This document shows positions 2,297 through 53,956 of a stretch of DNA of 64,000 bases, one piece after another (position 1 is the first letter of the stretch; every line of letters starts with the position of its first letter). Position numbers and translations under genes: made by a program. The stretch spans positions 21,514 through 85,513 of the forward strand of contig JAQUOD010000001.1 of the NCBI GenBank assembly GCA_028717245.1, given 5' to 3'. The stretch comes from Candidatus Omnitrophota bacterium. GTDB taxonomy: Bacteria > Omnitrophota > Gorgyraeia > Gygaellales > Profunditerraquicolaceae. Below the pieces are notes generated by a model, which saw only the letters and a list, made by a program, of their open reading frames with translations, had not been told where the DNA came from and did no database searches.

Positions 2297-2373
2297 GCCC
2301 CTGTAGCTCATAAGGATAGAGCAGCAGTTTCCTAAACTGCGCGTGGCAGGTTCGATTCCTGCCAGGGGCACCA
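2297..2373 (+). tRNA. tRNA-Arg (anticodon CCT), CCA encoded
   Basis: Cloverleaf readable: acceptor GCCCCTG/CAGGGGC, anticodon stem GCAGT/ACTGC with loop TTCCTAA, T-arm GCAGGTTCGATTCCTGC, 3' ACCA. Confidence 0.8.
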
Positions 2374-2377
2374 AAAA

Positions 2378-2433
2378 AGGGACTGTCCCCGTAGATAGCT
2401 AATTCAAAGGATACCAAGGGGACTGTCCCTAAA
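2378..2433. repeat. Paired palindromic 11-mers GGGACWGTCCC separated by ~27 nt (site 1 of 4)
   Basis: GGGACTGTCCCC-N26-GGGGACTGTCCC ending 6 nt before the PHP gene ATG; same pair at 15698-15746, 19768-19824, 52451-52504. Confidence 0.7.
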
Positions 2434-2438
2434 GAAAT

Positions 2439-3092
2439 ATGTACAATCTGCATTGCCATTCATTATTAAGCGATGGGGCCCTGCTTCCTTCAGAGGTAGC
2501 GGTGCGCTATTTATCCGCAGGGTATAAGGTAATTGCCATTACTGACCACGCTGATTACAGCAATATAGATTTTGTGATTGATTCAATCTTGAGATTTATT
2601 CAGCGTTGGCCGCGGGATTCTCAATTAAAAATCCTGCCCGGCGTAGAACTGACTCACATCCCGCCAATACAATTTAAACCCTTGGCCAAATATGCCAGGA
2701 GTAAAGGTGTAAAAGTTATTGTCGGCCACGGCGAGACCCTGGTTGAGCCGGTGATTAAAGGGACCAACCGCGCTGCCTTAGAAGCGGATATTGATATTCT
2801 GGCTCATCCGGGTTTAATTGCCGACGCAGAAGTAAAACTCGCCAAGAAAAAAGGCATATTTCTGGAGATAACCAGCCGTAAGGGCCACCGCGATACTAAC
2901 CCGCATGTAGTAGAACAGGCCTTAAAAGCAGGGGCAAGATTAATTTTGGATACGGACAGCCACCTGCCGGAAGATATTATTTCCGCAGAGCAATTGATAA
3001 AAGTCGGCCGGTATGCCGGCTTAAGCCGGAAAGAGATAGAGCATATTTATCAGGATGTAAAAGGCTTTTTAAAAGGAAAGGGGGTAAAGTGA
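2439..3092 (+). CDS. PHP-domain metal-dependent phosphoesterase (histidinol-phosphatase-like)
   Basis: N-terminal LHCHSLLSDG and ITDHAD motifs characteristic of PHP family. Confidence 0.7.
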   Translation: MYNLHCHSLLSDGALLPSEVAVRYLSAGYKVIAITDHADYSNIDFVIDSILRFIQRWPRDSQLKILPGVELTHIPPIQFKPLAKYARSKGVKVIVGHGETLVEPVIKGTNRAALEADIDILAHPGLIADAEVKLAKKKGIFLEITSRKGHRDTNPHVVEQALKAGARLILDTDSHLPEDIISAEQLIKVGRYAGLSRKEIEHIYQDVKGFLKGKGVK

Positions 3093-12392: not shown

Positions 12393-12701
12393 ATGAAGAG
12401 GCGCGGAAGGCCTAAGAAATACAGGATAGTGCGGGTTGACCCCAGAATAAACCAGTTTAGCCCAAGGGGCAGGCCAGGCCGGCCGGATGAGGTAGATTTA
12501 ACTATGGATGAATTTGAGGCAGTGCGCCTGGCGGATTACCTGGGTTTAAGCCAGAAAGAGGCAGCTAAATCCATGCATATCTCCCAGCAGACCTTTAGCC
12601 GTATCCTGAAAAGGGCGCGCAAGTCCTTAGCCAGCGGCCTGATAGGCGGCAAAATTATCAAGATCCAGGGAGGAACCTACATTATTAGTTCAGCCAAATA
12701 A
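12393..12701 (+). CDS. DUF134/UPF0251 family putative DNA-binding protein
   Basis: MKRRGRPKK..RGRPGRP..LTMDEFEAVRLADYLGLSQKEAAKSMHISQQTFSRILKRARKSLA matches DUF134 pattern with sigma-70 region-4-like HTH. Confidence 0.7.
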   Translation: MKRRGRPKKYRIVRVDPRINQFSPRGRPGRPDEVDLTMDEFEAVRLADYLGLSQKEAAKSMHISQQTFSRILKRARKSLASGLIGGKIIKIQGGTYIISSAK

Positions 12702-12965
12702 TCCCTACCAAAACCGCACCAGGTGCAAATCTAATCGGGCACCTGGTGCGAATTCAAGATTGTACCTGTCCCAAGATTATTCTTACAAACAAGATAAAAA
12801 GAGCTATATTGCTAACTTCCTATAATATATCTTATGTTAACTTGAGCATATTGAGAGAATTGATTTAACATATTGGAGCGTAAAGAGTTACAAATTTTGG
12901 GATTTTCCTGTGGATAAGCCAGATTTGATTTACTTGGGCTTACTTATCTCTTTTATCTTTGACAT

Positions 12966-13814
12966 TTAAAAACAAAACGTGAGCTTATTTGACAGGCCAG
13001 ATTGGCGGGCGTATTCAACGGTTTTTTCCTTGAGCTGGCGGGAATATTCGGCATATTTGGCAAGATTAAAATAAAACCTCCCTCCTAATCCCCTCTTTAG
13101 GCTATTTAGGACACCCCAACGTGGATTGAGCTTATCTACGTAGACTTGGCTTAAATTTAAGCCCTCTAGGGCCCTAAAAAGGCCTTCCAGATTGGCTCTG
13201 GTATCGCTAAATTCCGGGATTAGCGGCCCTAAAAATACCCAGGTTTTTATACCTTTACTCTGGGCTTTTTTGAGGGTATTTAGGCGCTCCCGGGTTTCTG
13301 AAGCATAAGGTTCTAAGGCTTTTTGTAGGCCTAGATTCAGTGTGGTCATGGTCATGCCTAAACTAGGGGTTTTATAGTTGCTTAAAATATCAAAATCGCG
13401 CTCAATCAAGCTGCTCTTAGTCAGGATAGAAACCTCAAAACCGGCTTCCAAAAGTAGCTTAAGGCATGCCCGGGAGAGTTTATATTTTGCCTCCAGCGGC
13501 TGCCAGCCATCACAGATAGAGCTCATAAACACCTCGATTTTATCCGGTGCTTTCCGAGGCGTCCTGAGCGTAGCGAAGGAAACCTCTTTCGGAGGCCTGA
13601 TTTTTCGTAGTTGTTTAGCCAAAACTTCGGGCGCGTTTACCTTAACATCCACAAAATCGCCCCAGTCTTCAGGCCTATCCTTGAACTTTTTCATATATCG
13701 GGCATAGCAATACAGGCATCTGTGGCTACAGCCTACGTAGCAGTTCAGGGTAAAATCGCTTAGGTTGGACTTATTCAGGAGGGTTTTGCAGGTAATTTCG
13801 CGGATTTTGAGCAT
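12966..13814 (-). CDS. Radical SAM domain protein (SplB/COG1533-like)
   Basis: Cys cluster CYVGCSHRCLYC near N-terminus; size ~280 aa. Confidence 0.55.
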   Translation of the reverse strand: MLKIREITCKTLLNKSNLSDFTLNCYVGCSHRCLYCYARYMKKFKDRPEDWGDFVDVKVNAPEVLAKQLRKIRPPKEVSFATLRTPRKAPDKIEVFMSSICDGWQPLEAKYKLSRACLKLLLEAGFEVSILTKSSLIERDFDILSNYKTPSLGMTMTTLNLGLQKALEPYASETRERLNTLKKAQSKGIKTWVFLGPLIPEFSDTRANLEGLFRALEGLNLSQVYVDKLNPRWGVLNSLKRGLGGRFYFNLAKYAEYSRQLKEKTVEYARQSGLSNKLTFCF

Positions 13815-13857
13815 AAAAAGAGAAACTTATGGAGACCTTTTACCTTAATAGTAAATA

Positions 13858-13900
13858 ATAAAAAGCCCGCACTCTCCTTAAGTACGGGCTTTGATTTTTC
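13858..13900. terminator. Bidirectional hairpin terminator
   Basis: AAAAGCCCGCACTC..GTACGGGCTTT flanked by A/T runs on both strands. Confidence 0.55.
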
Positions 13901-14020
13901 TTTTGCTGGCGCAAGGCAGGGACCGTAAAACCTAATTTCGCCAGCTAAATTAGGTGCTAAGCCCTCCTGCGTCTCAACTCTAACTAAAGTTTATCACAAA
14001 TAAAGCTCTTGTCAAGAAAT

Positions 14021-14707
14021 TTAAGTAACCGCTTTACGGAAACACGGAATTCTCCACGACTCGAGTTTACTTAAAAATTGATTATATCTATCAACCGAAA
14101 ATGCTGTTAAGAATCCTAGCGAGCCGTCTTTCCTCTTAATAATAATTACGAGGAAAAAGGTTCGATAATACGCCTCTGTTATATGTACTGGATATTCAAA
14201 GTGAGACACGTATAAATATTTTACGCTATTACGTTCCTGTTTTTCATAAATTTCTCTACTATTTTCAAGAGTATAATGAATCCAGGGAAGACGTTTTGCT
14301 CGTGGTTCAAGAAAATTATCTGGTTTCATCTCGTGGCCATCATATAAAAAATCCATCCCCAGCTCATCAATAGTTATTTCTTCACCTAAAGAATCTTTGA
14401 CCTTACCCATCACTTTTTTATCATAGTAATCGAGCGCTTCCTTTTCTTCAATCTTTCTTCCAAAATTTTCTAACAAGTTGCCCTGCGCTATTATTAAATT
14501 ATCTTTCTGGTGATGATAGTATATCAAATTTAGACATTGGGCTATTTCTTTATGTTTAAGCTGTAGTTTATTTCTATGCTTCTGCTTATAATAAAACATC
14601 TTTATCGCATCATAAAATACATCTAAGGTTACATCTCTATTGTAGGTAGAAAGTAACCGGCTATTCTCCATAATTCTTAGTAACTTTTTTTCTTTAAGAT
14701 TACTCAT
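14021..14707 (-). CDS. Hypothetical protein in AT-rich island (start at MSNLKEKK; weak HEPN-like RxxxxH)
   Basis: ORF in ~30% GC region; own promoter copy upstream; motif RLPWIH only suggestive. Confidence 0.5.
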   Translation of the reverse strand: MSNLKEKKLLRIMENSRLLSTYNRDVTLDVFYDAIKMFYYKQKHRNKLQLKHKEIAQCLNLIYYHHQKDNLIIAQGNLLENFGRKIEEKEALDYYDKKVMGKVKDSLGEEITIDELGMDFLYDGHEMKPDNFLEPRAKRLPWIHYTLENSREIYEKQERNSVKYLYVSHFEYPVHITEAYYRTFFLVIIIKRKDGSLGFLTAFSVDRYNQFLSKLESWRIPCFRKAVT

Positions 14708-14842
14708 GGGTTTTTGCCTTTTTACTATAATAGACGTAATAAATGGCAAAATCTAACAGAGATTTTTTAGATTTCTTCAGGGATAGTCATCGGGAATGAA
14801 AAATAGAGTCGGATTTATTTTTCAAAAATAATTCTGAACTTA

Positions 14843-15589
14843 TTAACCCATTAATTGTTTTTTACTAATCTTCTTTATTAGAAGAGGCCTCTCTTTTTTT
14901 ATTCTGATAATCTGGAGCTCCCCATACGTCCCGCTAGAACTCGTTGCTATCTGTGAATCGCCACCCGTAGAGCCTAAAGCTAATAAATCTCTAACCGCTG
15001 GCTCCATAGAATTATTCCGTTGCACAATAGACTTTAGTTTTGTAATGGGCTCATCAAAAGAATTGCGGATTTCAGAACATATATCTTTCAACCCATTATT
15101 ATATCTTATTATTTTCTCCCCAGCATTATTAATAAGCAATTCGTGGATGAAATGTACTATAACTTTGCAGCTTTCTAAGCGTGAATATAAATTTATTATT
15201 TTTATTGCAAGCTCTTTATCATAACCACAAGCAATGGTAAAATAATTTTCATAAGCTATTAATTGCGGTGGATTCCAAACCCAACTATATATAAATGTAT
15301 TTTTATCTATTTTCCCTTTATGACCACCTACAGCATAATCATGAATGAATTGGTGAACCCAATTCTTATTTTGTTCCAATTCATAAATCAGAGACTCAAC
15401 TCCAATAAGCCTTTTGTCTTCTTCTATTTTTCTTATTTGTTTTATTTGTTTTTGCGCAAGTTGCCACATTACTATGATTGTAATTAATCCAACAGCGATT
15501 CCAATTATCATAATAAGCGAGCCCATCCAAGGTTTTGTAAGTAATAGAACAAATTGTTTAGAGATTTCTACGGCCTGTGCCACATTCAT
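14843..15589 (-). CDS. Hypothetical membrane-anchored protein in AT-rich island
   Basis: N-terminal TM helix SLIMIIGIAVGLITIIVMW; no recognisable catalytic motif. Confidence 0.5.
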   Translation of the reverse strand: MNVAQAVEISKQFVLLLTKPWMGSLIMIIGIAVGLITIIVMWQLAQKQIKQIRKIEEDKRLIGVESLIYELEQNKNWVHQFIHDYAVGGHKGKIDKNTFIYSWVWNPPQLIAYENYFTIACGYDKELAIKIINLYSRLESCKVIVHFIHELLINNAGEKIIRYNNGLKDICSEIRNSFDEPITKLKSIVQRNNSMEPAVRDLLALGSTGGDSQIATSSSGTYGELQIIRIKKERPLLIKKISKKQLMG

Positions 15590-15775
15590 TTTATTGCACT
15601 CCTCCCCTACTCAAGAAAAAAGGCAACCCCCCTTCTATCTTGGAGAGTTGCCTTTAATTATTAGTTGCTTTTGGGTCCATTTTAGCCAAGTCTACGTTTA
15701 GGGACAGACACCTTGGTTTCTAATATACACCTTAGGGTCAGTCCCTTCATTATTCTACGCCTAATAGGAGCTTTG

Positions 15776-16522
15776 TCAATAGGGGCGGTTCTGCATAATA
15801 TAGAAGCCGTAGCCGTAGTAGGCGCAGTATTTCTTGTACATTTCTATTTCTAGCTCTAAGGGGTCAAAGATGGCCTGGGTAGCCGGGTCGCCTCTATATT
15901 TAATCTTCTTCTCGGCAAGCACCTTCTCTAGCGGGGTATAGTAACCCGTCCACCAGGATTCATCCGGCAAGGGGAAATAATCGATGAGCTTATATCCTGC
16001 CGAATCAATGAGCGGATAGATATCTTTGTAATATTTAATATTCGGATCTACTTTGGCGAAGAAGTCCCTTACTTCCTGCGGCGCGTCTTGTTTAAACCAG
16101 ACTAAATCACTTACCACTAAGTAGCCATTAGGCCGCAGGAATTTTTTCCAGTAGGCAAGCCCCTTGGCAAACCCCATGATAAAGACAGACCCCTCGGACC
16201 AGATTAAGTCAAAACTCGCCTCTTTAAAATCCATCGCGGCCATGTCGCCTACGACACATTTGATCCTGTCCGGATAGCCGGCTTGGCCAAGGTTGCGCTT
16301 AAGGGCTTCGATAAAGGGCGGATGGTTATCCAGGGCGGTAATGTTGCCGGAGGTTAACTTGGCCAGAACAAGAGTCTGTTTGCCCGCGCCGCAGCCTACA
16401 TCCAGGATTTCGGGGTGCTTAGGCAATTCGCTAAGCTTTTGAAAGGCCTTTTGAGTGGAGAGCTCATCACCCGGCCCCTGCCTGGGCAAGGCCTCAAATA
16501 TTTCGTAGAAAAGTTTGTCCAT
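15776..16522 (-). CDS. Class I SAM-dependent methyltransferase
   Basis: Motif I ILDVGCGAGKQT, motif post-I, typical fold length. Confidence 0.8.
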   Translation of the reverse strand: MDKLFYEIFEALPRQGPGDELSTQKAFQKLSELPKHPEILDVGCGAGKQTLVLAKLTSGNITALDNHPPFIEALKRNLGQAGYPDRIKCVVGDMAAMDFKEASFDLIWSEGSVFIMGFAKGLAYWKKFLRPNGYLVVSDLVWFKQDAPQEVRDFFAKVDPNIKYYKDIYPLIDSAGYKLIDYFPLPDESWWTGYYTPLEKVLAEKKIKYRGDPATQAIFDPLELEIEMYKKYCAYYGYGFYIMQNRPY

Positions 16523-16530
16523 TGGGCGGT

Positions 16531-16776
16531 CTATGCGCTGGCCAGTTTATGCAGCATTTCGGAAATGAGGGTTTGGTATTTAACTCCTAATTCTCGCGCT
16601 TTTTGCTTGATATGCTTTAAATCATAGCTGTTCACGCGCATATTTAAGACGGTATCTTTCTTTTTGCGTTCAAGGGCTTCTACGATTGCGTCATATTCTT
16701 TCCCTGTTACGGGAACATATTCCTCTAGATGGTCTTCAATCCACTGCTCTTGTTTTGTTAGTTTCATTCTCCTCAT
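16531..16776 (-). CDS. brnA: BrnA-family antitoxin (RHH/CopG-like)
   Basis: LTKQEQWIEDHLEEYVPVTGKEYDAIVEALERKKKDTVLNMRVNSYDLKHIKQKARELGVKYQTLISEMLHKLA matches BrnA consensus. Confidence 0.8.
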   Translation of the reverse strand: MRRMKLTKQEQWIEDHLEEYVPVTGKEYDAIVEALERKKKDTVLNMRVNSYDLKHIKQKARELGVKYQTLISEMLHKLASA

Positions 16777-17077
16777 TATTTCTCCTTTTTTGATAAATTT
16801 TCTTTACTTTCCGGCTAGGATAGATTGTTTTTAAAAATATGCCTTTGGTTTCAAATACAAACGGCACTGCCCAGGCATAGCCTTTATATTTATAAGCTAA
16901 AACCCATTGATTATTCCGGGATGGATGCTCATGGATGCCCAGAAATTTAGCGTGTATAATTTCTTCGAACGAAACTCCCCTTGTGCGCTTCACTCGTTTA
17001 CTTTTTTCCGGATTCCATGATATTGTATATACAATTGTATTACTTTCCTGCGGTTTGTCAAGTTCTTTTTTATTCAT
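16736..17077 (-). CDS. brnT: BrnT-family toxin (DUF497 ribonuclease)
   Basis: ISWNPEKSKRVKRTRGVSFEEI..VLAYKYKG matches DUF497/BrnT; overlaps brnA by 41 nt as typical. Confidence 0.75.
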   Translation of the reverse strand: MNKKELDKPQESNTIVYTISWNPEKSKRVKRTRGVSFEEIIHAKFLGIHEHPSRNNQWVLAYKYKGYAWAVPFVFETKGIFLKTIYPSRKVKKIYQKRRNNEENETNKTRAVD

Positions 17078-17423
17078 GTCCTCCCCCCTTCTACTTATAA
17101 TAGACGTAGAAAGGAGCGGAATCTAACAGGGACTTTTTAGGGGAGTAGGAAGATCGGGGTTGATTCTATCGCCTGTAATAAGCTAAGAATTGAGAAGTTC
17201 TCTCCCTTAAGGGGACTCGCCCAGAATACGCCCGGGTATCACGTTACCGAAAAAGGAGAGCTTTATTCCGATAAGTATAGCCACGCCGCCTCGGAGATAC
17301 CCTGAAACGTACCTTTATCAAAAACGCCTGACCGGCCAAAAAACAATTTTAACCCCTTAGGGCATAAAAATAGCGCTGATCCTACTTCGGAATCAGCGCT
17401 ATTTTTATCGTACCTCTCTTCTT

Positions 17424-19333: not shown

Positions 19334-19753
19334 TTAAAATTCGTCTATCTTGGGGCGGAAGGAACGCATCTCTTTCTTCTCGGCCCGTTCCCTCTTAAGC
19401 CGTAATATCTTTTCCTTTGCCCGTTTAGAGCGCCGGCGCTTCTGCTTTCTTATCTTGGCGATGCGCTTTCTTTCTTCTGATAGCTCACCTAGCCTAAGCG
19501 TCTCGATTTTATTAACTAGTATCCTTCTGGCCAGAAACCTATTCAAACCCTGATACCGCTCCTGTTGGCATTTTACCTCTATGCCGGTGGGTATATGCTT
19601 CAAATAAACGCAGGTGGATACCTTGTTGACGTTTTGGCCCCCCTTACCTCCTGAACGGATGAATTTCTCTTCTATGTCCTGCTCGCGGATGCCCAGTTTT
19701 TGCATCCTTTCGCTTAATGCCTTTTGCTTAGTTTCACTGATACTGGATTCCAT
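19334..19753 (-). CDS. arfB: Alternative ribosome-rescue factor ArfB (peptidyl-tRNA hydrolase, RF-1 domain)
   Basis: GGQ motif in [11 protein letters not shown]; basic C-terminal tail; ~139 aa. Confidence 0.85.
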
Positions 19754-19820
19754 TTTAATTCCTAATGTTAGGGACAGTCCCCTTGGTTTCTATCTAGTTC
19801 GATATATGCGGGGACAGTCC

Positions 19821-20573
19821 CTAGGGACTATACTCTTTCATGACCATGGAATAGCCCAGGGCGCCGCTGGTCTGGATTTTTAGGGGGATGCGGCGGCTAT
19901 CTGCGCTAATCCAGATATCGATTTGCCTGGGGGTACTGCTAAAATGATATGCCTTAAAAGTGCCGGCAGGGACAGTTAGCTCTTCTTCGGAAACCAACTC
20001 TATTTCTAACCTCCGGGTAGGCAGGTTAGCAATAATTACTCTTCCCACATCCAAATTAGGGGTATGGCGTACATAATACGGCAGGAGCGCGGCATTATGG
20101 ATAAGGTCGTCTTTTTTGATAATGAGCCGCTCCTGTTTTTTCATCCCTTTCTTCTTAATGATAGTAACCGTAAAGTTAGTTTGGTCATAGTGCTCGTTAA
20201 TTTTTTCATGCGTAAATATGTTCATGATATCCCGCTCTACCTTTACCGGTAAGAGAGTTTGCGGGTCGCTATAAATTCTTTCCGTATCGCTAAAGTGGGT
20301 TAATTTAGTTTCCATGACCATGAGGTTTAAAATTCTGCCTTCTAAGGGGGCATTGCCGATATTGGAAAAACGCATCCGGCCTAAACGCACCTTGCCCAGC
20401 ATGACATCATAGGTAATTTTTTCCCCGCTATATTTAGATTGTCCGATACGACGATTACCTGCGGATTTATCTTTGGCTTTTAGGGAGAGGATAGAACTAA
20501 AGGCCCCCAGGAGAAAAGCAGTAAAAAGGCATAAAAGCAGGGTATTTAAAAATTTCTTACGGGTTCTTTTCAA
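19821..20573 (-). CDS. Exported hypothetical protein (DUF3108-like)
   Basis: N-terminal signal/TM segment; size and composition only. Confidence 0.4.
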   Translation of the reverse strand: MKRTRKKFLNTLLLCLFTAFLLGAFSSILSLKAKDKSAGNRRIGQSKYSGEKITYDVMLGKVRLGRMRFSNIGNAPLEGRILNLMVMETKLTHFSDTERIYSDPQTLLPVKVERDIMNIFTHEKINEHYDQTNFTVTIIKKKGMKKQERLIIKKDDLIHNAALLPYYVRHTPNLDVGRVIIANLPTRRLEIELVSEEELTVPAGTFKAYHFSSTPRQIDIWISADSRRIPLKIQTSGALGYSMVMKEYSP

Positions 20574-46257: not shown

Positions 46258-46962
46258 TTAGATAGTTTTATATTTTTTAATATCGAGAAACCAGTGTTTC
46301 CAGAAGCCTTCCTTGATAATGGGTTCGGCTTTTAGTATCTGAATCCGTTTCTTAAAAATCGGGCCGTCTATCACCAGGGTATGGAATTCTCCGTTTTCGC
46401 CGCAGGGGCAGATATTCCTTGTTTTCAACTCGCTGATTAAATCCGTGTCTATCGGACGGCCGAGGAATTCTTTGCCCATTATGTCTGCTTTACAGCTGAC
46501 AATAATCGCCTTAAAGCCGAGTTTTATAAAATCTTTGATAATTTCTTCCGGCGGTAAATTCCATAACGGCTCTACGGCAGAAATATCTAAATCTTTGCAG
46601 ACACGTTTAACCCAATTCTCATGTTCTTCTAAATAAATATCCCCGAAAACCATTGCCTTGACGCCTTTGAATTTAAACTCTCTAACCGCAGCCTTAAATT
46701 CCTCTTCATATTTTTTCATATCCGGGCTTACTTCTTTTTGAATCAGGGGTATGCCTATTGCTTCTGTTTGGGCCTGCATGAGCTTATTTTCTATTCCGTG
46801 AAAACATCCGCGTTTGGATTCCCGCGAGATAAAATTCAAAAGGTATTTTACCTGATAGCCCTCTTGGATTGCCTTATAGCAAGCCAGGCAGCTGTCTTTA
46901 CCGCCGCTCCATGAAGATATCGCCGTTAAATTATCCATAGGTTGCCCCTTTCTAAAATGCAT
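46258..46962 (-). CDS. PP-loop ATP pyrophosphatase (MJ0570/Dph6-like)
   Basis: SWSGGKDS PP-loop motif. Confidence 0.65.
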   Translation of the reverse strand: MHFRKGQPMDNLTAISSWSGGKDSCLACYKAIQEGYQVKYLLNFISRESKRGCFHGIENKLMQAQTEAIGIPLIQKEVSPDMKKYEEEFKAAVREFKFKGVKAMVFGDIYLEEHENWVKRVCKDLDISAVEPLWNLPPEEIIKDFIKLGFKAIIVSCKADIMGKEFLGRPIDTDLISELKTRNICPCGENGEFHTLVIDGPIFKKRIQILKAEPIIKEGFWKHWFLDIKKYKTI

Positions 46963-47681
46963 ATACTAAATAATATGATGACCTCAGTTATTTCTTCTGC
47001 TGCGCCAAGGGTGTCTCCGGTTATTCCGCCGATTTTTTTATCCATAGCTTTACCGAAAATATAATTAACCCCGGCTATTATCATAAGAACTAATAGCCCT
47101 TTTATCCTCCAGATTGCGATTACGGGAATCAGGGTGATTATAGTCGCTAAGATAAATATTTTTAAAGTTATTCCCTGCGTAAAAGTCTTTGCTTTACCCT
47201 CTTCTCTGGCATAAGGGAATAAAAATATCGTAAAGACCATAGACCATCTGCTCAGTATGCACATTAAGAGCAATGCAGTCATTTTGGAAGATATGCCTAG
47301 CGTAGAAAGAAAAGAGGACTTTAATAGTAGCATGCTTATTATTGCCAAGACCCCCATTACGCCGATGTGGGGATCGCGCATAATCGTAAGCATCTCTTCT
47401 TTGCTCTTTCTGCTCAATAAGGCATCGGCAGTATCGGCTAGGCCGTCTAAATGCATCCCGCCTGTAAGTATGACGAGGGAGATAACCAGGATAATATTTA
47501 TGGAGAATTCCGGGAAATTCAGGTTAAGGAATAAATTGTCTATTCCTACTAAAGCCAACCCCAGCAATAGCCCGATCAATGGGAAGCATATCATTGATTT
47601 TGCTAATTCATCTTCTCGTGCGAGGCTGACCTTAACGGGAATAATGGTTAAGAATTGTAGCGCCAAGAGTAGGCTCTTCAT
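46926..47681 (-). CDS. cobS: Adenosylcobinamide-GDP ribazoletransferase
   Basis: LQFLTIIPV N-terminus, multi-TM CobS pattern. Confidence 0.8.
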   Translation of the reverse strand: MKSLLLALQFLTIIPVKVSLAREDELAKSMICFPLIGLLLGLALVGIDNLFLNLNFPEFSINIILVISLVILTGGMHLDGLADTADALLSRKSKEEMLTIMRDPHIGVMGVLAIISMLLLKSSFLSTLGISSKMTALLLMCILSRWSMVFTIFLFPYAREEGKAKTFTQGITLKIFILATIITLIPVIAIWRIKGLLVLMIIAGVNYIFGKAMDKKIGGITGDTLGAAEEITEVIILFSICILERGNLWII

Positions 47682-48769
47682 TTATCGGTTTTTTGGGATA
47701 CGCCCGCGCTTTTAAAGGTAGCCATCTGGGTTAAAATCTTTATTGCCGCATCTATTATGTTTATTCCTAAGGCAGCACCCGTGCCTTCTCCCAGCCTTAG
47801 GTTTAAATCCAGAAGGGGCTTAAGGCCCAAATATTCTAATATAACCTTGTGGCCTTTTTCTACTGAACAGTGGCTGGCGATCATGTAATCTTTGGTTTTC
47901 GGTTCTATTTGATAAGCGATTAATGCCGCAGCAGCAGATATAAATCCGTCTATTATTACCGGGACCCTTTTACTTGCGGCTGCTAAAATTATACCGGCCA
48001 GCCCCCCTATCTCAAAGCCGCCTACCTTAGCCAGGATATCGATAGCATCGTCAGGATCGGGTTTATTCAATGCCAAGGCCTTTTTGATAACCCTGATTTT
48101 ATTCTTCATGCCTTTATCGTCAATTCCCGTTCCTTTACCAGTAACATCCGCAACAGGTTTTTTTGTAATTACCGCGGTAATCGCGCTGGCTGCAGTGGTA
48201 TTGCCGATACCCATCTCTCCGGTTCCGATAATATCAATACCTTTTTTCCCGCCGGAGGCGGATCCGCCTTTGACGGAAAATTCATCTGTAAATATTTCTA
48301 TCCCTGCCTCAATAGCTTTTATTGCTTCAGGCCTGGTCATTGCCGGGCCAACTGCCATATTCTTAGTGCCGTAATTTATTTTTTTAATCACAAGGGCCGG
48401 GTGAGGTTTTAAATCCTGGACAACACCCAAGTCCGCCACTATAACCCTTGCTCCGGCATGCCTGGCTAAAACATTTATCCCTGCGCCGCCGCTTAAGAAG
48501 TTATAGACCATTTGCGCGGTGACTTCTTGGGGATACGCGCTTACGCCTTCCCGGGCTACCCCATGGTCAGCCGCAAAAGTAAAGATGGCCTTATTCTTAA
48601 GCTTCGGGTTTTCTTTTGCGGTTATACCTGCAATAAGCCTGGCTAATTCTTCTAATCTCCCCAGGCTCCCAATAGGCTTAGTCAGGTTATTGAGCCTTTC
48701 TTGCGTCAAATCCATAAGCCTTTTGTTAATTTCGGCGATATTACTTAAGGTTTCTTTTAGTTTATCCAT
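47678..48769 (-). CDS. cobT: Nicotinate-nucleotide--dimethylbenzimidazole phosphoribosyltransferase
   Basis: GEMGIGNTT motif and CobT length. Confidence 0.85.
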   Translation of the reverse strand: MDKLKETLSNIAEINKRLMDLTQERLNNLTKPIGSLGRLEELARLIAGITAKENPKLKNKAIFTFAADHGVAREGVSAYPQEVTAQMVYNFLSGGAGINVLARHAGARVIVADLGVVQDLKPHPALVIKKINYGTKNMAVGPAMTRPEAIKAIEAGIEIFTDEFSVKGGSASGGKKGIDIIGTGEMGIGNTTAASAITAVITKKPVADVTGKGTGIDDKGMKNKIRVIKKALALNKPDPDDAIDILAKVGGFEIGGLAGIILAAASKRVPVIIDGFISAAAALIAYQIEPKTKDYMIASHCSVEKGHKVILEYLGLKPLLDLNLRLGEGTGAALGINIIDAAIKILTQMATFKSAGVSQKTDK

Positions 48770-48777
48770 GCCTTGCT

Positions 48778-49296
48778 CTATTTTATTTTTAGGGGGATAC
48801 CCGCAACCATAAAAAATACCTCGTCGGATTCTCTGGCAACGAATTGGTTTATCTTGCCGGCAATATCCCGGAAATCCCTGCCTAGCTTGTTCTTTGGCAC
48901 TATGCCCAAACCCACTTCGTTAGATACGATAATGGCGCTGGCCCTGCTTTTTTTTAATTCGGATAAGACTTTATTTATTTCTTCATAGATAGCCGGTTCC
49001 CGGAGCCCCTTTAGTATTAAATTTGATACCAGAAGCGTCAGGCAGTCCAATAAAATAAGCGGGAATTTTTTAATGATTTTATACAGGAGTTTTGAGATAT
49101 TAACCGGCTCTTCAAAGGTCTGCCAGTTTCTTGGCCTGTTCTTTTTATGCAGATTTATGCGCTTAGCCATTTCCTTATCCAGGGCCTGGCAGGTGGCAAT
49201 AAAGGCAACCTTTCTTTTACCTTTCTTGGCTAACTCAAGGGCATAAGCGCTCTTACCGCTACGCGCGCCGCCGGTAATAAAAATAATTTTAGCCAT
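48778..49296 (-). CDS. cobU: Adenosylcobinamide kinase / adenosylcobinamide-phosphate guanylyltransferase
   Basis: P-loop ITGGARSGKS at N-terminus, ~170 aa. Confidence 0.85.
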   Translation of the reverse strand: MAKIIFITGGARSGKSAYALELAKKGKRKVAFIATCQALDKEMAKRINLHKKNRPRNWQTFEEPVNISKLLYKIIKKFPLILLDCLTLLVSNLILKGLREPAIYEEINKVLSELKKSRASAIIVSNEVGLGIVPKNKLGRDFRDIAGKINQFVARESDEVFFMVAGIPLKIK

Positions 49297-49303
49297 ATTG
49301 ACT

Positions 49304-49936
49304 TTACCCTTTCTTAAATTTTACCGCGTCTATCTTCAGGCCGGATAGATGCGAGATGTCATTGAGGAGCCTGATTTTAATTTTTTTATTCTTTGCGTCC
49401 ATGATAGTGAGGCTGGCTGAATCCGGTATATGTTTCCAGAATTCCTTAGATTTTAATACATGGTTGATGAATGCGCTGATTGCTCCGCCATGGCAGACCA
49501 CCGCGATAGTCTGGTTAGGGTGGCAGAGAATAATCCTTTTGAATGCCTTTACTACGCGTTTTTTAAGTATAGTCAGGCTTTCGCCTGAGGGGATGGCGTT
49601 TGCAAAGGGGTTACCCGCCCATTTTTTATAAATACGGGGGAATTTTTCCATGATTTGTTTATAAGTCAGGCCTTCAAAGATGCCGAAGTGCATCTCCCGT
49701 AAATCCGCGACCTTCTCTACGTCGCGCCCCTTAAAGACTATTTCGGCAGTTTGTATGGCGCGTTTCCTGTCGCTCGCGTATACTTTATGCACGGTTTCAT
49801 TCTTGAGCCTCCTCTGCAGCCTTTTTGCCTGTATCTTCCCTCTTGCGTTTAAGGCTATGTTGATAAAGCCGCAGTATCTCTGTAGAACATTCCAATCTGT
49901 CGAGCCGTGCCGGATAAGAAAGAGCCTGGTAGCCAT
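49304..49936 (-). CDS. cobC: Alpha-ribazole phosphatase (histidine phosphatase family)
   Basis: RHG catalytic motif LIRHGSTDWN. Confidence 0.75.
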   Translation of the reverse strand: MATRLFLIRHGSTDWNVLQRYCGFINIALNARGKIQAKRLQRRLKNETVHKVYASDRKRAIQTAEIVFKGRDVEKVADLREMHFGIFEGLTYKQIMEKFPRIYKKWAGNPFANAIPSGESLTILKKRVVKAFKRIILCHPNQTIAVVCHGGAISAFINHVLKSKEFWKHIPDSASLTIMDAKNKKIKIRLLNDISHLSGLKIDAVKFKKG

Positions 49937-50725
49937 TTATCTCTCTCTTGGGACCAAGACCACATATGGCTTGGAATTAATGGGGTTATTGTTGACTACT
50001 ACAGTTGTCTTATATACTGCTTCTATATTTTGATAAGTCAATACATCGCGGGGAGAACCTTCTTTAAAAATTTTCCCTTCATTCATCAGGACTATCCGGT
50101 TACAATATTCACTGGCTAAGTTTAAGTCATGCAGGACCATAATAATGGTAAGATTATCCTGGCGGTTTAATTTCCGTAATAAATCCAATATCTGTATCTG
50201 ATGGCCTATATCCAGGTGTGAAGTAGGCTCATCTAAGAATAGTAAAAGCGGCTGCTGGGCGAGGGCCTTGGCGATAATCACGCGCTGGCGTTCCCCGGAA
50301 CTTAACTCGTCTATCATTTTTTCTTTTAAATGCAGGGTGTCGGTCATTGCCATTGCCTTCTCGGCAAAAAAATAGTCTTTCTTGGTTTCGGCCTCAAGCC
50401 TCTTAAGGTGCGGGGTCCTTCCCATTAACACGATCTCAAATACGCTAAAGGGAAAATTGACCACGGTATCCTGAGCCACAAAGGCAACAGACTTCGCGAA
50501 CTCTTTCATCGCCATTGAGGCGATATCCCTGCCATGAAAAATAATATTTCCTTTATTGGGTGAAAGTATCTTGCTGGCCAGGCGTAGGAGGGTAGTCTTA
50601 CCGGAGCCATTTGGCCCGATAATCCCCATAAAATCCCCGTGTTTTATATCCAAAGAGATATCCCTTACGATCGTCTCTTTACCGTATCCTCCGCTTAGGT
50701 TATATGTCTTTAGCAAATTACTCAT
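49937..50725 (-). CDS. ABC transporter ATP-binding protein, FecE/BtuD-like (start moved to MSNLLKTYNL, 4-nt overlap with permease)
   Basis: Walker A GPNGSGKTT, signature LSGGERQRV, Walker B LLFLDEPT. Confidence 0.85.
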   Translation of the reverse strand: MSNLLKTYNLSGGYGKETIVRDISLDIKHGDFMGIIGPNGSGKTTLLRLASKILSPNKGNIIFHGRDIASMAMKEFAKSVAFVAQDTVVNFPFSVFEIVLMGRTPHLKRLEAETKKDYFFAEKAMAMTDTLHLKEKMIDELSSGERQRVIIAKALAQQPLLLFLDEPTSHLDIGHQIQILDLLRKLNRQDNLTIIMVLHDLNLASEYCNRIVLMNEGKIFKEGSPRDVLTYQNIEAVYKTTVVVNNNPINSKPYVVLVPRER

Positions 50726-51684
50726 TTTATCCCCTGTTTTACTTTTAACAGGATTATAAATACCGGCGCTCCCAAAAATGCTGTTATGACTCCTATAGGT
50801 ATTTCTAAAGGAGGGAATATTGTGCGCGAGAGTATGTCGCAGGTTATCATGAATATCGCAGCTGCAAGACATGAGACAGGAATAAGGGTTTTATGGTTTG
50901 GGCCTATCAAGAGCCGCATCATATGCGGGACTATCAGCCCCACAAACCCGATTATCCCGCAGACAGAAACAAGCCCGGCGGTGATTAGAGAGACTATCAA
51001 TATAAGGATTTTCTTTACGGCTTCTATGTCTATACCTAAGTGCATCGCTTCTTCTTCGCCAAGGCTTATGGCGTTTAAATCCTGGGAGAATATATAAACC
51101 GCGGCTACCCCAAGCATAACCACGGTACAGATTATTATAAGGAGCGTCCAGTCGTAGACCTGCAGACTTCCCCAGAGCCACCAGGTTATGCCGTGTAACG
51201 CCTCATTCGAACTGGCAGAGATAAGGAATACGATTATAGCTGAAACCGCCACGGAGACAATAACCCCGGAGAGTATTAACGACTGCGGTAATATTTTATT
51301 ATTCTGTTTAGCTAAATTATAAACCAAAACAATGCTTAAGACTGCGCCTATGAATGCTGCCAGAGGCAGGTATATCCCCGATACGCCTAATATGACCGCT
51401 ATTACCGCGCCTAACCCCGCGCCGCTTGAAGTCCCCAATAAGTATGGTTCAGCTAAGGAATTCTTTAAAATTGCCTGCAGGGCTATGCCTGAAACACTCA
51501 AGCCCGCCCCCGCGACTGCCGCAAGGAATATGCGCAAAAGCCTCAAGTTCAATATGGGCCTGTTTCCTTCAAGTAGCAATTCAGAAAAAGGAATATTCAC
51601 CGAGCCGATAAGGGCCCCCGCCAAAATAGCGAATATTAATAATAAAAATAAAAACAGTATTTTATTCCTGAGCTTTCCCGTCAT
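50722..51684 (-). CDS. ABC transporter permease, FecCD/BtuC family
   Basis: ~10 TM helices, FecCD pattern. Confidence 0.85.
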   Translation of the reverse strand: MTGKLRNKILFLFLLLIFAILAGALIGSVNIPFSELLLEGNRPILNLRLLRIFLAAVAGAGLSVSGIALQAILKNSLAEPYLLGTSSGAGLGAVIAVILGVSGIYLPLAAFIGAVLSIVLVYNLAKQNNKILPQSLILSGVIVSVAVSAIIVFLISASSNEALHGITWWLWGSLQVYDWTLLIIICTVVMLGVAAVYIFSQDLNAISLGEEEAMHLGIDIEAVKKILILIVSLITAGLVSVCGIIGFVGLIVPHMMRLLIGPNHKTLIPVSCLAAAIFMITCDILSRTIFPPLEIPIGVITAFLGAPVFIILLKVKQGIK

Positions 51685-52559
51685 GGATAAAACCTCTCGT
51701 GAAGTTCCCTAAGCCCCTCTGTTATGCGCGGGCCCGGGCGCAACAATAAATCAGAATTAATGTCGTTATATATCCTATTATTTCTAACTGCCATTATATT
51801 CCCCCAGCTAAAACGCTTACTCAATGATATTCGCGAGCCTTCTTCGCCCATATAAGCCAAAATGATACATTCAGGGTTACGTTTAATCACCTCTTCCGGG
51901 CTAAATATACTGTATGCCCTTTTTGTATCCTTTGCTATGTTTATCCCTCCTGCCTTGGTAATCAACTCATCAACAAAAGAACCATCTCCCGCGGTAGTCA
52001 GCGGGTCATGCCATATCTCAATAAATACCCTTGGCTTTTTATTTGCGGGTATTGCTGTGACCTTTAAATTTATCTCTTTAATCTCATCCTGCATAGCTTT
52101 GATTAATGCCTTTGCTTCTTTTGGCTTGCCGGTAATCCTGCCTATCTCCATAATAGAGCTAAAGAGCCCGTCCGTGTTCTGCGGGTCAGACACATAGACA
52201 TTTAAATTTAGGCGCCTCAACTCAATGACTACAGATGCCTGCTCAAGCCCCGTACAAAAAATATAGTCAGGCTTTAAAGAAATGATTTTCTCTATATTGG
52301 GATAACTGAATGTGCCGACTTTTTCCTTGCCTTTTGTTTTTGGGGGATAATTACAGTATAAGCTTACCCCTACGATTTCTTCATCTAACCCTAAGGAGAA
52401 TAAGATTTCAGTAGTTGAAGGGGCCAGCGAAATATACCGGGCGGTCTTTTTAGGGACTGTCCCCGCCATGGCTATTTCTGTAAATCCCAAGGGGACTGTC
52501 CCTGATAATAAGCTAATTATTAATAATAGTTTCTTCATATAACAAAAAACCCGCCACAA
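51681..52559 (-). CDS. Periplasmic substrate-binding protein, BtuF-like (cobalamin); start uncertain because paired palindromic repeat overlaps the 5' end
   Basis: RYISLAPSTTEILFSLGL..and class III PBP pattern. Confidence 0.75.
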   Translation of the reverse strand: MWRVFCYMKKLLLIISLLSGTVPLGFTEIAMAGTVPKKTARYISLAPSTTEILFSLGLDEEIVGVSLYCNYPPKTKGKEKVGTFSYPNIEKIISLKPDYIFCTGLEQASVVIELRRLNLNVYVSDPQNTDGLFSSIMEIGRITGKPKEAKALIKAMQDEIKEINLKVTAIPANKKPRVFIEIWHDPLTTAGDGSFVDELITKAGGINIAKDTKRAYSIFSPEEVIKRNPECIILAYMGEEGSRISLSKRFSWGNIMAVRNNRIYNDINSDLLLRPGPRITEGLRELHERFYP

Positions 52560-52562
52560 AAT

Positions 52563-52798
52563 TCGGCGGGTTGCACCCTGCTTTCCTACTTGACCCTTAT
52601 CCGCGAGGTTCTTCTACGCCCTTTAAAAGGCCGGGTTTCGAAGCAACTATTATATAGGTAAGGTCTTCTGACTTAAGGATTGGCCTACTTGCTCTACCTT
52701 CCCGGCTTTTAAGCCAGTGGTATTTTAGAGTTTTCGTACCCTTATACAGCAGCGGGACTGTGGCCGCTTTTACGGCCTTCCCTCACCCATACAACTAT
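52563..52798 (-). ncRNA. Cobalamin riboswitch with intrinsic-terminator expression platform
   Basis: Minus-strand read: GGGTGAGGGAAGGCCGTAAAAGCGGCCACAGTCCCGCTGCTGTA, ACCACTGGC (B12-box-like), CCGGGAAGG, then AACCCGCCGAATTTTGTGGCGGGTTTTTTGTT terminator just before btuF-like start. Confidence 0.7.
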
Positions 52799-52940
52799 CT
52801 AATTTGTAAAAAGAACTCTTACTAATTTTCTATCTAGGGCTATATTAATGCAAATTTATTTTTATGTCAAGAGAAAGTTTCATTAATGAAACTTTCTCTT
52901 GATTCTTAAGGCAATGTGCCGAAGAATCTAATATAATTCT

Positions 52941-53444
52941 TTAAAATTCAATTCCCTTCCTGGCCTTCACGCCCTTTTTATAATAATGTTTGACCTCTTT
53001 TATTTCGCTTACTAAGTCTGCGGCCTTAACGATTTCAGGATGCGCCTGGCGGCCGGTAAGAATCAGTTCTGTTTTTCCGGGAGCGCTTTTAATGAGCGAG
53101 ATAACATCCCTCAATTCCAGAAGCCCGAGTTTTAAGGCCGGGTTGATTTCATCCAATATTACCACATCATAATATCCTGCGCAGATAATTTCTTTCGCTT
53201 TATTTAAGCCGCGTTTGGCTAACTCCCTGTCTTTTTGGGCAGGGTTTTTACGGATAAAAAAGGCCCTTCCGAATTGTTCGACTTTTATATTTTTAAACTT
53301 CTTTATGGCCGTTAATTCACAATAGCAGCCGTTTTTTAAAAACTGGCAGATATAAATTTTTAAACCGCCCCCTGCTGCCCTTAGCGCCTGGCCCAAGGCA
53401 GCCGTAGTTTTTCCTTTGCCGTTACCGGTATATACCTGTATCAA
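52941..53444 (-). CDS. cobO: Cob(I)yrinic acid a,c-diamide adenosyltransferase
   Basis: VYTGNGKGKTTAALG P-loop. Confidence 0.85.
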   Translation of the reverse strand: MIQVYTGNGKGKTTAALGQALRAAGGGLKIYICQFLKNGCYCELTAIKKFKNIKVEQFGRAFFIRKNPAQKDRELAKRGLNKAKEIICAGYYDVVILDEINPALKLGLLELRDVISLIKSAPGKTELILTGRQAHPEIVKAADLVSEIKEVKHYYKKGVKARKGIEF

Positions 53445-53956
53445 TGCACCACCGCTTTCCAGCTGATTATGCCTAATCCAGAGAGGCCAGCGACGATTAA
53501 TCCTGCGCCGATAACCCCACAGATTATAGCGATAAATGCGTATCTAAACCTGATTTTAAATAAAGACGCAGCTACTACCCCGCTCCAGGCCCCTGTTATC
53601 GGTAAAGGTATCGCCACGAATATGGCTAAGCCCAACGCTTCGTATTTTTGCACTGTATCTGCTTTTTTCTTCGTTCGCGTAAAGAGCCAATCGAAGAAAC
53701 GCGACCAGATTTTAAAATTCCGTAGCCTTTTGGAAACGGGCTCTAGAAGAAAAAGCGCCGGCGCAACCGGGATGATGTTGCCTATTACCGCCAGCCAAAA
53801 TGCTTTACCCATAGGCATACCCAGAGATAATGCTAAAGGGATCGCCCCTCTTAGTTCCGATATGGGTAGCGCCCCTACAATCATTACCAGGTATTCTTTA
53901 GGTATATTTTTTAAGCAGTTTATTATTATCTCAAGCATGTTTTTGCCCCCAGCCAT
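53441..53956 (-). CDS. Small membrane protein (COG2426 putative small multidrug export type)
   Basis: 4 TM helices; weak family resemblance. Confidence 0.4.
   Translation of the reverse strand: MAGGKNMLEIIINCLKNIPKEYLVMIVGALPISELRGAIPLALSLGMPMGKAFWLAVIGNIIPVAPALFLLEPVSKRLRNFKIWSRFFDWLFTRTKKKADTVQKYEALGLAIFVAIPLPITGAWSGVVAASLFKIRFRYAFIAIICGVIGAGLIVAGLSGLGIISWKAVVH

Follow-up and report, generated by a model that had tools for sequence, protein, structure and literature searches.

What are the paired palindromes that lie scattered through the genome of a bacterium known only from sequence, and do they control the genes beside them? Omnitrophota is an uncultivated phylum of very small bacteria. 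A 64,000-nt stretch of one Candidatus Omnitrophota genome (contig JAQUOD010000001.1, positions 21,514 to 85,513; hereafter, the window) carries four sites at which two copies of the palindrome GGGACWGTCCC (W, A or T) stand close together. An initial annotation placed these sites at the 5′ ends of unrelated genes and offered several possible roles: a miniature mobile repeat, a binding site for a global regulator, or a hairpin controlling translation. The four sites are copies of a dispersed hairpin repeat of ~52 nt that is abundant in Omnitrophota, and we consider it probable that this repeat is miniature selfish or mobile DNA, not a regulator of gene starts. It was this first role that wider comparison supported: the family is large, its profile recovers the window sites, its copies lie in unrelated and even coding contexts, and orthologous loci differ in their presence.

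The exact palindrome occurs six times in the window, at 2379, 2419, 19771, 19811, 52453, and 52492, whereas shuffling predicted 0.02 occurrences and no shuffle reached six. These six pair up as 2379/2419, 19771/19811, and 52453/52492, with start-to-start spacings of 40, 40, and 39 nt, and a degenerate fourth pair lies at 15701 (two mismatches) and 15735 (one mismatch). The four sites and their spacing therefore stand as first described, with 12-nt arms, once an extra C/G is counted, around an interior of 27 nt (26 at the btuF-like gene). The flanking sequence proved less uniform. It reads TTAGGGACAGTCCCCTTGGT at site 1 (reverse strand) and site 3, but carries two substitutions at site 2 and becomes TCAGGGACAGTCCCCTTGGG at site 4 (reverse strand).

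Beyond the window, a metagenome scan with the pattern AGGGACAGTCCCCTT-N15-30-GGGGACAGTCCC found the element at 120 or more loci (at least 120 by this count). Most metagenome copies are 51–52 nt long, within an overall range of 50–53 nt, and their consensus reads TtA-GGGACAGTCCCC-TT…AGCTyTGrC-GGGGACAGTCCC-TtT. The arms are 13 nt each (A-GGGAC-A-GTCCC-C and G-GGGAC-A-GTCCC-T) and are inverted repeats of one another save at the central base, with an arm spacing of 39–40 bp in 94 pairs. The interior of ~26 nt is only loosely conserved and falls into sub-families, and the motif …AGCTyTGrC adjoins the second arm. We refer to the strand reading GGGACAGTCCC as the A-form and to its complement as the T-form. 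A profile hidden Markov model (HMM) built from 110 metagenome copies, none of them from the window, matched exactly the four sites and nothing else in the window, with scores that were orientation-specific:

2377–2432, minus strand: copy 1, A-form on the minus strand, the plus strand showing GGGACTGTCCCC…GGGGACTGTCCC (family HMM, E = 3.8e-14)
15698–15748, plus strand: copy 2, degenerate, AGGGACAGACACC…AGGGTCAGTCCCT (family HMM, E = 0.038)
19768–19824, plus strand: copy 3, A-form on the plus strand (family HMM, E = 2.5e-13)
52450–52505, minus strand: copy 4, A-form on the minus strand, sense to the btuF-like gene (family HMM, E = 1e-14)

The family also includes a short form with arms 16 nt apart and arrays of three arms. 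Short 27-nt forms (GGGACTGTCCCCGCAGGGGACTGTCCC) are frequent within open reading frames (ORFs), and the three-arm arrays, in which two elements have a common middle arm, were seen at L173 1122–1211, L136 3042–3121, and L166 10190–10272. Together, these variants suggest modular growth or recombination between copies. We counted 369 exact palindromes in 824 kb of Omnitrophota-type loci, a sample biased by the choice of loci for carrying the element; the window itself holds four elements in 64 kb. Flank identity did not stand out from that of shuffled flanks at any k from 2 to 5 (30 vs. 21 at k = 2; 1 vs. 1.2 at k = 3), so no target-site duplication was detected. Against Rfam 15, neither the window's elements nor those of 18 loci (gathering threshold) or 6 loci (E ≤ 0.1) gave a match. 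Literature searches with the literal palindrome returned only chance, primer-like matches in unrelated papers, and searches on Omnitrophota palindromes returned only mentions of CRISPR, with no account of Omnitrophota repeat content found.

What has been conserved in this family is a hairpin. Every window copy folds as a single stem on both strands, at −19 to −28 kcal/mol with z scores of −2.7 to −4.8 (copy 1, −23.5/−24.1 kcal/mol, z about −4; copy 3, −26.6/−27.6 kcal/mol), and copy 2, though degenerate, still folds at −18.7/−20.3 kcal/mol. Among 36 distinct arm variants drawn from degenerate copies, compensatory changes between arms affected four pairs (13 cells), a level reached in 0 of 500 shuffles. 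By contrast, the dyad within a single arm showed no compensatory change in these variants and did no better than shuffled sequence. Copy 2 itself carries a T-A to A-T change that is compensated between its arms, and in one recurrent sub-family (GGGTCAGTCCCC/GGGGACAGACCC) the arms are no longer palindromic yet still pair with each other. Compensation between arms, with none inside them, indicates that the conserved object is the arm-to-arm hairpin and not two symmetric duplex sites. A single-stranded or RNA hairpin had been proposed from the window alone, and as a structure it is supported by folding and covariation. The stem had been described as 12 GC-rich base pairs, however, and here only the pairing of the arms holds: the central base is identical in both arms on one strand, so the stem consists of 6 bp, a W·W mismatch, and another 6 bp. 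Of 376 palindromes, 373 have W at the center, and the arms agree in this W in 181 pairs vs. 6. The mismatch is therefore itself conserved, and it tells the two strands apart (A·A vs. T·T). Wobble-pair asymmetry, a probe of constraint at the RNA level, gave no clear signal, at 18 vs. 11.

Where the copies lie is difficult to square with control of gene starts. About 44% of distinct copies (59–60 of 133–135) fall within long ORFs and leave the frame open. All five host ORFs that we tested were confirmed by Pfam and encode an Rhs/TcdB/SpvB toxin, NAD-dependent epimerases, and C39-peptidase proteins; the toxin, of 2185 aa, contains at least nine palindromes. In its own frame, the palindrome reads G-T-V-P on both strands, and in the other frames GLSP or GQSP, and DCP or DSP. 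Element-derived inserts such as QGLSPSELSQSLLKGTVPE recur. Intergenic copies, which account for many short spacers, lie a median of ~2 nt from the upstream stop and ~20 nt from the downstream start, and in 11 copies, the TAG stop is common to the gene end and the first G of the element. This proximity to stops, with so many copies in mid-gene, does not support the suggestion of translational control at gene starts. A genome-wide pattern search had been put forward as the check on whether copies track gene starts and orientation. In our counts, placement favored upstream stops, but orientation was indeed biased, with the T-form on the sense strand in 127 cases vs. 49 (~72%, leaving 28% in the opposite orientation).

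Two further observations concern placement elsewhere. A different Omnitrophota lineage has the element nested within a longer conserved leader, which lies upstream of unrelated housekeeping genes (argH, rpsL, pyrB, carA, plsX, fabG, and others), with the layout GCGAGATAAGCRCTGCAGTA-[element]-TACCAAGCGAGATAAG-N9-GCGAGATATGCCAAAAGGAG-N-ATG, at loci L132, L150, L157, L158, L168, L185, L206, L226, L229, L244, L007, and L060. The leader motif GCGAGATAAG recurs every 19–20 nt and is not enriched in the window (4 matches vs. 7.5 expected); this may be a lineage-specific promoter or leader module. At L142 5708–7714 (minus strand), an ORF resembling a GDP-sugar epimerase/reductase has an apparent insertion of ~330 aa that looks by eye like an intein or homing endonuclease, and it also holds a palindromic element near its C-terminal third.

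Within the window, the following features surround the copies:

2297–2373, plus strand: tRNA-Arg(CCT), directly upstream of copy 1
2439–3092, plus strand: PHP-domain phosphoesterase gene, downstream of copy 1
19334–19753, minus strand: arfB-like (RF-1 domain) gene, its start 14 nt from copy 3
19821–20573, minus strand: DUF3108 gene, its C-terminus (…KEYSP*) remodeled by copy 3
51681–52538, minus strand: btuF-like gene for a periplasmic cobalamin-binding protein, ATG at 52538, host of copy 4
52548–52572, minus strand: canonical intrinsic terminator of the riboswitch
52640–52805, minus strand: cobalamin riboswitch upstream of btuF (82 bits)

Copy 1 lies 5 nt past the tRNA and 9 nt ahead of the ATG of the PHP gene, whose product had no match in an exact-protein look-up. 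Copy 2 lies between the stop of a methyltransferase gene (15776; assigned by Pfam) and the ORF at 14843–15589, 30 nt past that stop and ~110 nt ahead of the next start. Copy 3 fills the spacer between the DUF3108 and arfB-like genes; DUF3108 takes its final two codons and its TAG stop from the right end of this copy. These same codons and stop correspond to an extra half-palindrome, AGTCCCTAGGGACT (AGTCCC-TA-GGGACT), joined to the copy at 19816–19829; comparable …GTCCCTAGGGAC… junctions are seen in arrays elsewhere. The start codon of the btuF-like gene has the riboswitch and its terminator upstream and copy 4 downstream, which makes this copy coding sequence and not a leader. The location at gene 5′ ends given by the initial annotation thus fits copy 1 near the PHP start and copy 3 before arfB, but describes placement only in part, since site 3 overlaps the DUF3108 stop and site 2 adjoins that of the methyltransferase. 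Three of the four copies have, as had been noted, a common orientation relative to their flanking genes, with site 4 as the exception.

Other features of these neighborhoods are recorded here for completeness. Copy 2 sits in a low-GC island (14000–17100; GC 0.35 in 14–16 kb) that contains ORFs without Pfam matches and a CopG-type antitoxin (16531–16776), and a strong sigma-70-like match, TTGACA-16-TAGAAT (15779–15752, minus strand), stands just upstream of it. Among the genes at 46258–53956, the riboswitch precedes btuF-FecCD with CobO/BtuR just upstream, and at orthologous btuF loci, an ABC ATPase gene and genes for corrinoid salvage come next in the operon. Around 12700–14000, genes switch from all plus (left) to all minus (right) and cumulative GC skew peaks, consistent with converging replication forks at a terminus or with a local inversion. 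The orientation of the element also flips across this switch (copy 1 vs. copies 2 and 3). Homologues of the window's BtuF and DUF3108 proteins belong to Candidatus Omnitrophica/Omnitrophota, and one DUF3108 homologue, from a 375-kb contig of an NCBI metagenome-assembled genome (MAG), is 100% identical.

Copies have been gained or lost between related genomes, and they can outlast neutral sequence at a site. Orthologous epimerase genes at L145 and L166, aligned by hand, differ by one copy; a search for further empty sites by gapped blastn among the loci yielded only fuzzy cases. Site 3 is identical in two contigs of the same species (L246 and L247) and absent from relatives L245 and L248, at 84% and 66% protein identity, where DUF3108 ends in …KEYNF* or …REYSFTPNI* in place of the …KEYSP* encoded with copy 3. 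Other sites persist: the order tRNA-Arg(CCT)–element–PHP recurs in L149 and L173 with intact arms and a diverged interior. Conservation in relatives, proposed as a test of the repeat, therefore holds across lineages for the tRNA-Arg–PHP and btuF sites and fails for site 3 in its nearest relatives. Copies also follow tRNA genes beyond the window at L105, L149, L173, L181, and L185.

The btuF copy shows how a copy can become part of a protein. It encodes residues 13–29 (GTVPLGFTEIAMAGTVP) of the signal peptide, and GTVP does appear twice in that reading frame, as first reported. The copy is present in most orthologues at 60–77% identity, and those without it have signal peptides ~11 residues shorter. 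In a DNA comparison of seven orthologues, the palindrome codons were far more conserved than the third positions of neighboring invariant residues. Because the interior of this copy matches the family consensus, the segment IALAGTVP is element-encoded. The DNA of six orthologues has the element at this same place. In two of them (L122 1886–1943 and L298 ~1537–1594), the element is inverted at the same codon position, so that DSAISDSPK or VNAINISHE replaces a segment of the LGFTEIAMA type between two retained GTVP ends, as could follow from inversion in situ or from re-insertion. The element outlasts such inversion since either strand of the palindrome encodes one and the same peptide. In L300, the second palindrome has been lost through synonymous changes with its GTVP peptide retained. 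It appears that the copy was co-opted: in the signal peptide, the element now encodes what would be the ALA↓G cleavage region together with the end of the hydrophobic core.

As a working model, the element would be a non-autonomous selfish or mobile hairpin, comparable to REPINs (doublets of repetitive extragenic palindromic [REP] sequences), MITEs (miniature transposable elements with inverted repeats), or Rickettsia palindromic elements (RPEs). Its spread would depend on an enzyme whose gene lies elsewhere in the genome and which acts on the folded single strand; the most plausible candidate is a single-copy HUH/Y1 transposase of the RAYT (REP-associated tyrosine transposase) or IS200-like kind, and the mismatch would mark the active strand. 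After insertion, most copies would be passengers, present as hairpins where operon spacers are transcribed and as short loop peptides (GTVP, GLSP) where genes are translated. We infer mobilization as a single strand because the center is strand-specific, the orientation bias reaches ~72%, and target duplications are lacking.

Several observations weigh against this model. No Y1-transposase-like ORF was found among 6,635 ORFs in ~1.7 Mb of loci, with an IS200 TnpA sequence as the query, and the 30 window ORFs that were scanned included no transposase. When ORFs around 120 metagenome and 120 genome loci were clustered, only housekeeping families recurred (epimerases, AbiEi-like). In REPINs, the center bases are complementary (TT…AA; PMC3337134), whereas the Omnitrophota element has the same base in both arms. 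The junction between L145 and L166 is not clean, and the difference there may reflect deletion, or recombination that replaced the site, instead of insertion. The orientation bias did not separate replication from transcription: it stood at 72% by nearest gene, 71% by majority gene strand, and 66% by GC skew, and only three loci were informative. Finally, the arms stay conserved as DNA over deep divergence at btuF and tRNA-Arg, which a host function or ongoing gene conversion would explain no less well than pure selfishness.

The element resembles several known systems and belongs to none of them. REPs and REPINs are mobilized by RAYT (Y1, IS200-like) transposases (PMC3116915, PMC3337134). As in REPINs, short palindromic units occur as doublets that form a hairpin in single strands, with hundreds of copies, long and largely vertical persistence, no internal transposase, and a spacer less conserved than the arms. 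However, REPINs measure 70–110 nt vs. ~52 nt here, and REPs are overwhelmingly extragenic, unlike a family with ~44% of its copies within ORFs. Our element also has no GTAG motif, and no RAYT was found in the ~1.7 Mb of loci with the IS200 TnpA query. RPEs offer a second likeness, as in-frame inserts in many unrelated protein genes that contribute a tolerated short peptide and occur in non-coding DNA as well (PMC10969869). Yet RPEs are ~100–150 bp long, restricted to Rickettsia, and unrelated in sequence (PMC10969869); unlike them, the 50–53-nt Omnitrophota palindrome gives GTVP on either strand, and one copy forms part of a signal peptide. Correia/NEMIS and other MITEs likewise have terminal inverted repeats, lie in intergenic DNA near genes, are transcribed into hairpins that can be RNase III substrates, and are reported to invert in situ (PMC10969869). 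Correia elements, by contrast, span 100–200 bp and have a TA target duplication, promoters, and IHF sites (PMC10969869), whereas we detected no target duplication, a feature of MITEs. The terminal inverted repeats typical of MITEs are present here as the 13-nt arms, complementary except at the center. Within the loci collected, no matching autonomous insertion sequence emerged as a MITE partner and no transposase recurred near copies.

At the ends of IS200/IS605 elements and at integron attC sites, a folded single strand is recognized, and imperfections in the hairpin tell the enzyme which strand is active. Such recognition gives an orientation bias and no target duplication, though there the hairpins form part of larger elements or cassettes whose enzymes are known; we infer a parallel of mechanism only. 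The GC clusters and double-hairpin elements of fungal mitochondria are also tiny GC-rich palindromes in AT-richer genomes that invade both intergenic DNA and, in frame, coding sequence. These are organellar and unrelated in sequence to our element.

Could selection by the host instead maintain the copies? They could act in cis as RNA hairpins in transcripts of operon spacers and 5′ regions, either in mRNA processing and stability (as an RNase III site or a barrier to 3′ exonucleases) or by modulating translation of the gene downstream. The sense-strand hairpin is stable, compensatory changes preserve arm-to-arm pairing, and 72% of copies lie in one orientation relative to genes. Arms remain perfect while the interior diverges at the tRNA-Arg(CCT)–PHP spacer (three lineages) and at btuF, intergenic copies follow directly after stops, where stabilizer hairpins such as REPs act, and Correia elements offer a precedent as RNase III substrates (PMC10969869). 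Still, any stable stem would serve such a function, yet one stem sequence is used throughout. The 28% of copies in opposite orientation and a btuF copy that works both ways round also argue against it, as do the many copies in the middle of toxin and enzyme genes, a site 3 that relatives can dispense with, and neighboring genes that are functionally unrelated. We regard this as an unlikely general explanation. An RNA role is compatible with mobile origin; it is a live secondary possibility, backed by the deep conservation of arms at two sites.

Read as paired operators, the 11-bp palindromes would each be the site of one dimer of a global transcription factor or nucleoid protein, the two dimers sitting about four helical turns apart. 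The initial annotation raised this as a dimer-of-dimers arrangement, and each arm is indeed a perfect dyad (GGGAC-W-GTCCC), the spacing is tight at 39–40 bp in 94 pairs, and some copies lie near starts or promoter-like hexamers. However, variants restore complementarity between the arms and never the dyad within one, as the non-palindromic GGGTCAGTCCCC/GGGGACAGACCC arms illustrate. A symmetric duplex-binding dimer is not expected to enforce the same central base in both arms, so the strand-specific center (181 vs. 6) also counts against operators. Given, in addition, the short forms and three-arm arrays, copies inside the coding regions of unrelated genes, and the lack of any regulator gene associated with the copies, we consider paired operators very unlikely.

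Nor do the copies appear to be sequence-specific transcription terminators or attenuators of this lineage. A GC-rich stem, positions directly after a tRNA gene (in the window and at L105, L149, L173, and L185) or after stops, and a T6 run after copy 1 on the minus strand would suit such a role. Against it, the sense strand lacks a U-run after the hairpin (the flank consensus is T-d-t for the A-form and T-R-A for the T-form), and the run at copy 1, the only one, is on the antisense strand. The organism uses ordinary U-tract terminators, as at the riboswitch, and copies in long ORFs would end the transcription of their own genes. Termination thus seems still harder to credit than operators. Least probable of all is selection for GTVP…GTVP as a peptide with DNA identity secondary, which is favored by the retention of GTVP in most BtuF orthologues, and in L300 despite synonymous decay, but is refuted as a general explanation by non-coding copies 1–3 with stops in the GTVP frame, by genes that read the same DNA as GLSP, GQSP, DSP, or DCP, and by palindrome third codon positions more conserved than those of neighboring invariant residues, and so holds only as a secondary constraint at btuF.

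The preferred reading, a mobile hairpin repeat, may extend beyond Omnitrophota. Among the genome matches listed, paired palindromes also occurred in Planctomycetota (many), Kiritimatiellia, Nitrospirota-like MAGs, Bacillaceae, Coriobacteriia, Prevotella, and others, and a complete viral scan found 48 stretches with them. Three annotated viral contigs with multiple copies encode a Mu-like portal, Mu F, a MuA-type transposase, and a terminase. Outside Omnitrophota, these families have a longer hairpin with the arms at its base, again with the A·A mismatch, and its variable top shows compensatory changes. We set aside ORF-context statistics for GC-rich phyla, since our crude ORF caller produces spurious long ORFs there and makes such statistics unreliable. 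Pairs of identical 11-nt palindromes with other sequences turned up at ~5 per Mb of the loci sampled (4 in 0.86 Mb). Families of this kind may thus exist for many palindromes, and a common cause across phyla is possible but unproven.

Additional details were noted for these non-Omnitrophota hairpins. Mu-like phage contigs (L250, L258, and L278 from IMG/VR; L008 and L022) carry three to four long hairpins each, together with a TniB/MuB-like ATPase. The base of the phage hairpins is GGGGAC-W-GTCCC, identical types occur in Nitrospirota-like and Thermodesulfovibrionales MAGs, and these had no Rfam match. A Bacillaceae variant (L040, L050, L051, L064, and L085) consists of two separate extended palindromes, each of which has GGGACWGTCCC as its apex and outer arms that vary. 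Between them lies a conserved TTAACGCGTTAA-like spacer, and W often differs from one unit to the other.

From sequence comparison, we tentatively suggest that the GGGGAC-W-GTCCC(C) stem with its W·W mismatch could be the base of a hairpin class that crosses phyla, read in a strand-specific manner by a partner protein, spread in part by transposable phages, and able to keep supplying Omnitrophota with new stretches of peptide, a signal-peptide module among them. If such a class exists, its partner would be a new hairpin-specific transposase or recombinase, or a host factor that binds RNA or DNA. Should the cross-phylum and phage copies have that partner protein in common, this would point to an undescribed system for mobilizing single-strand hairpins. 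Within Omnitrophota, the element affects both MAG assembly and genome annotation, as it creates start and stop codons and adds GTVP and GLSP peptides to toxins and enzymes. It offers a natural system outside Rickettsia in which to study in-frame selfish DNA, and at btuF, such an element appears to have been turned into a working part of a signal peptide, one that has survived even inversion.

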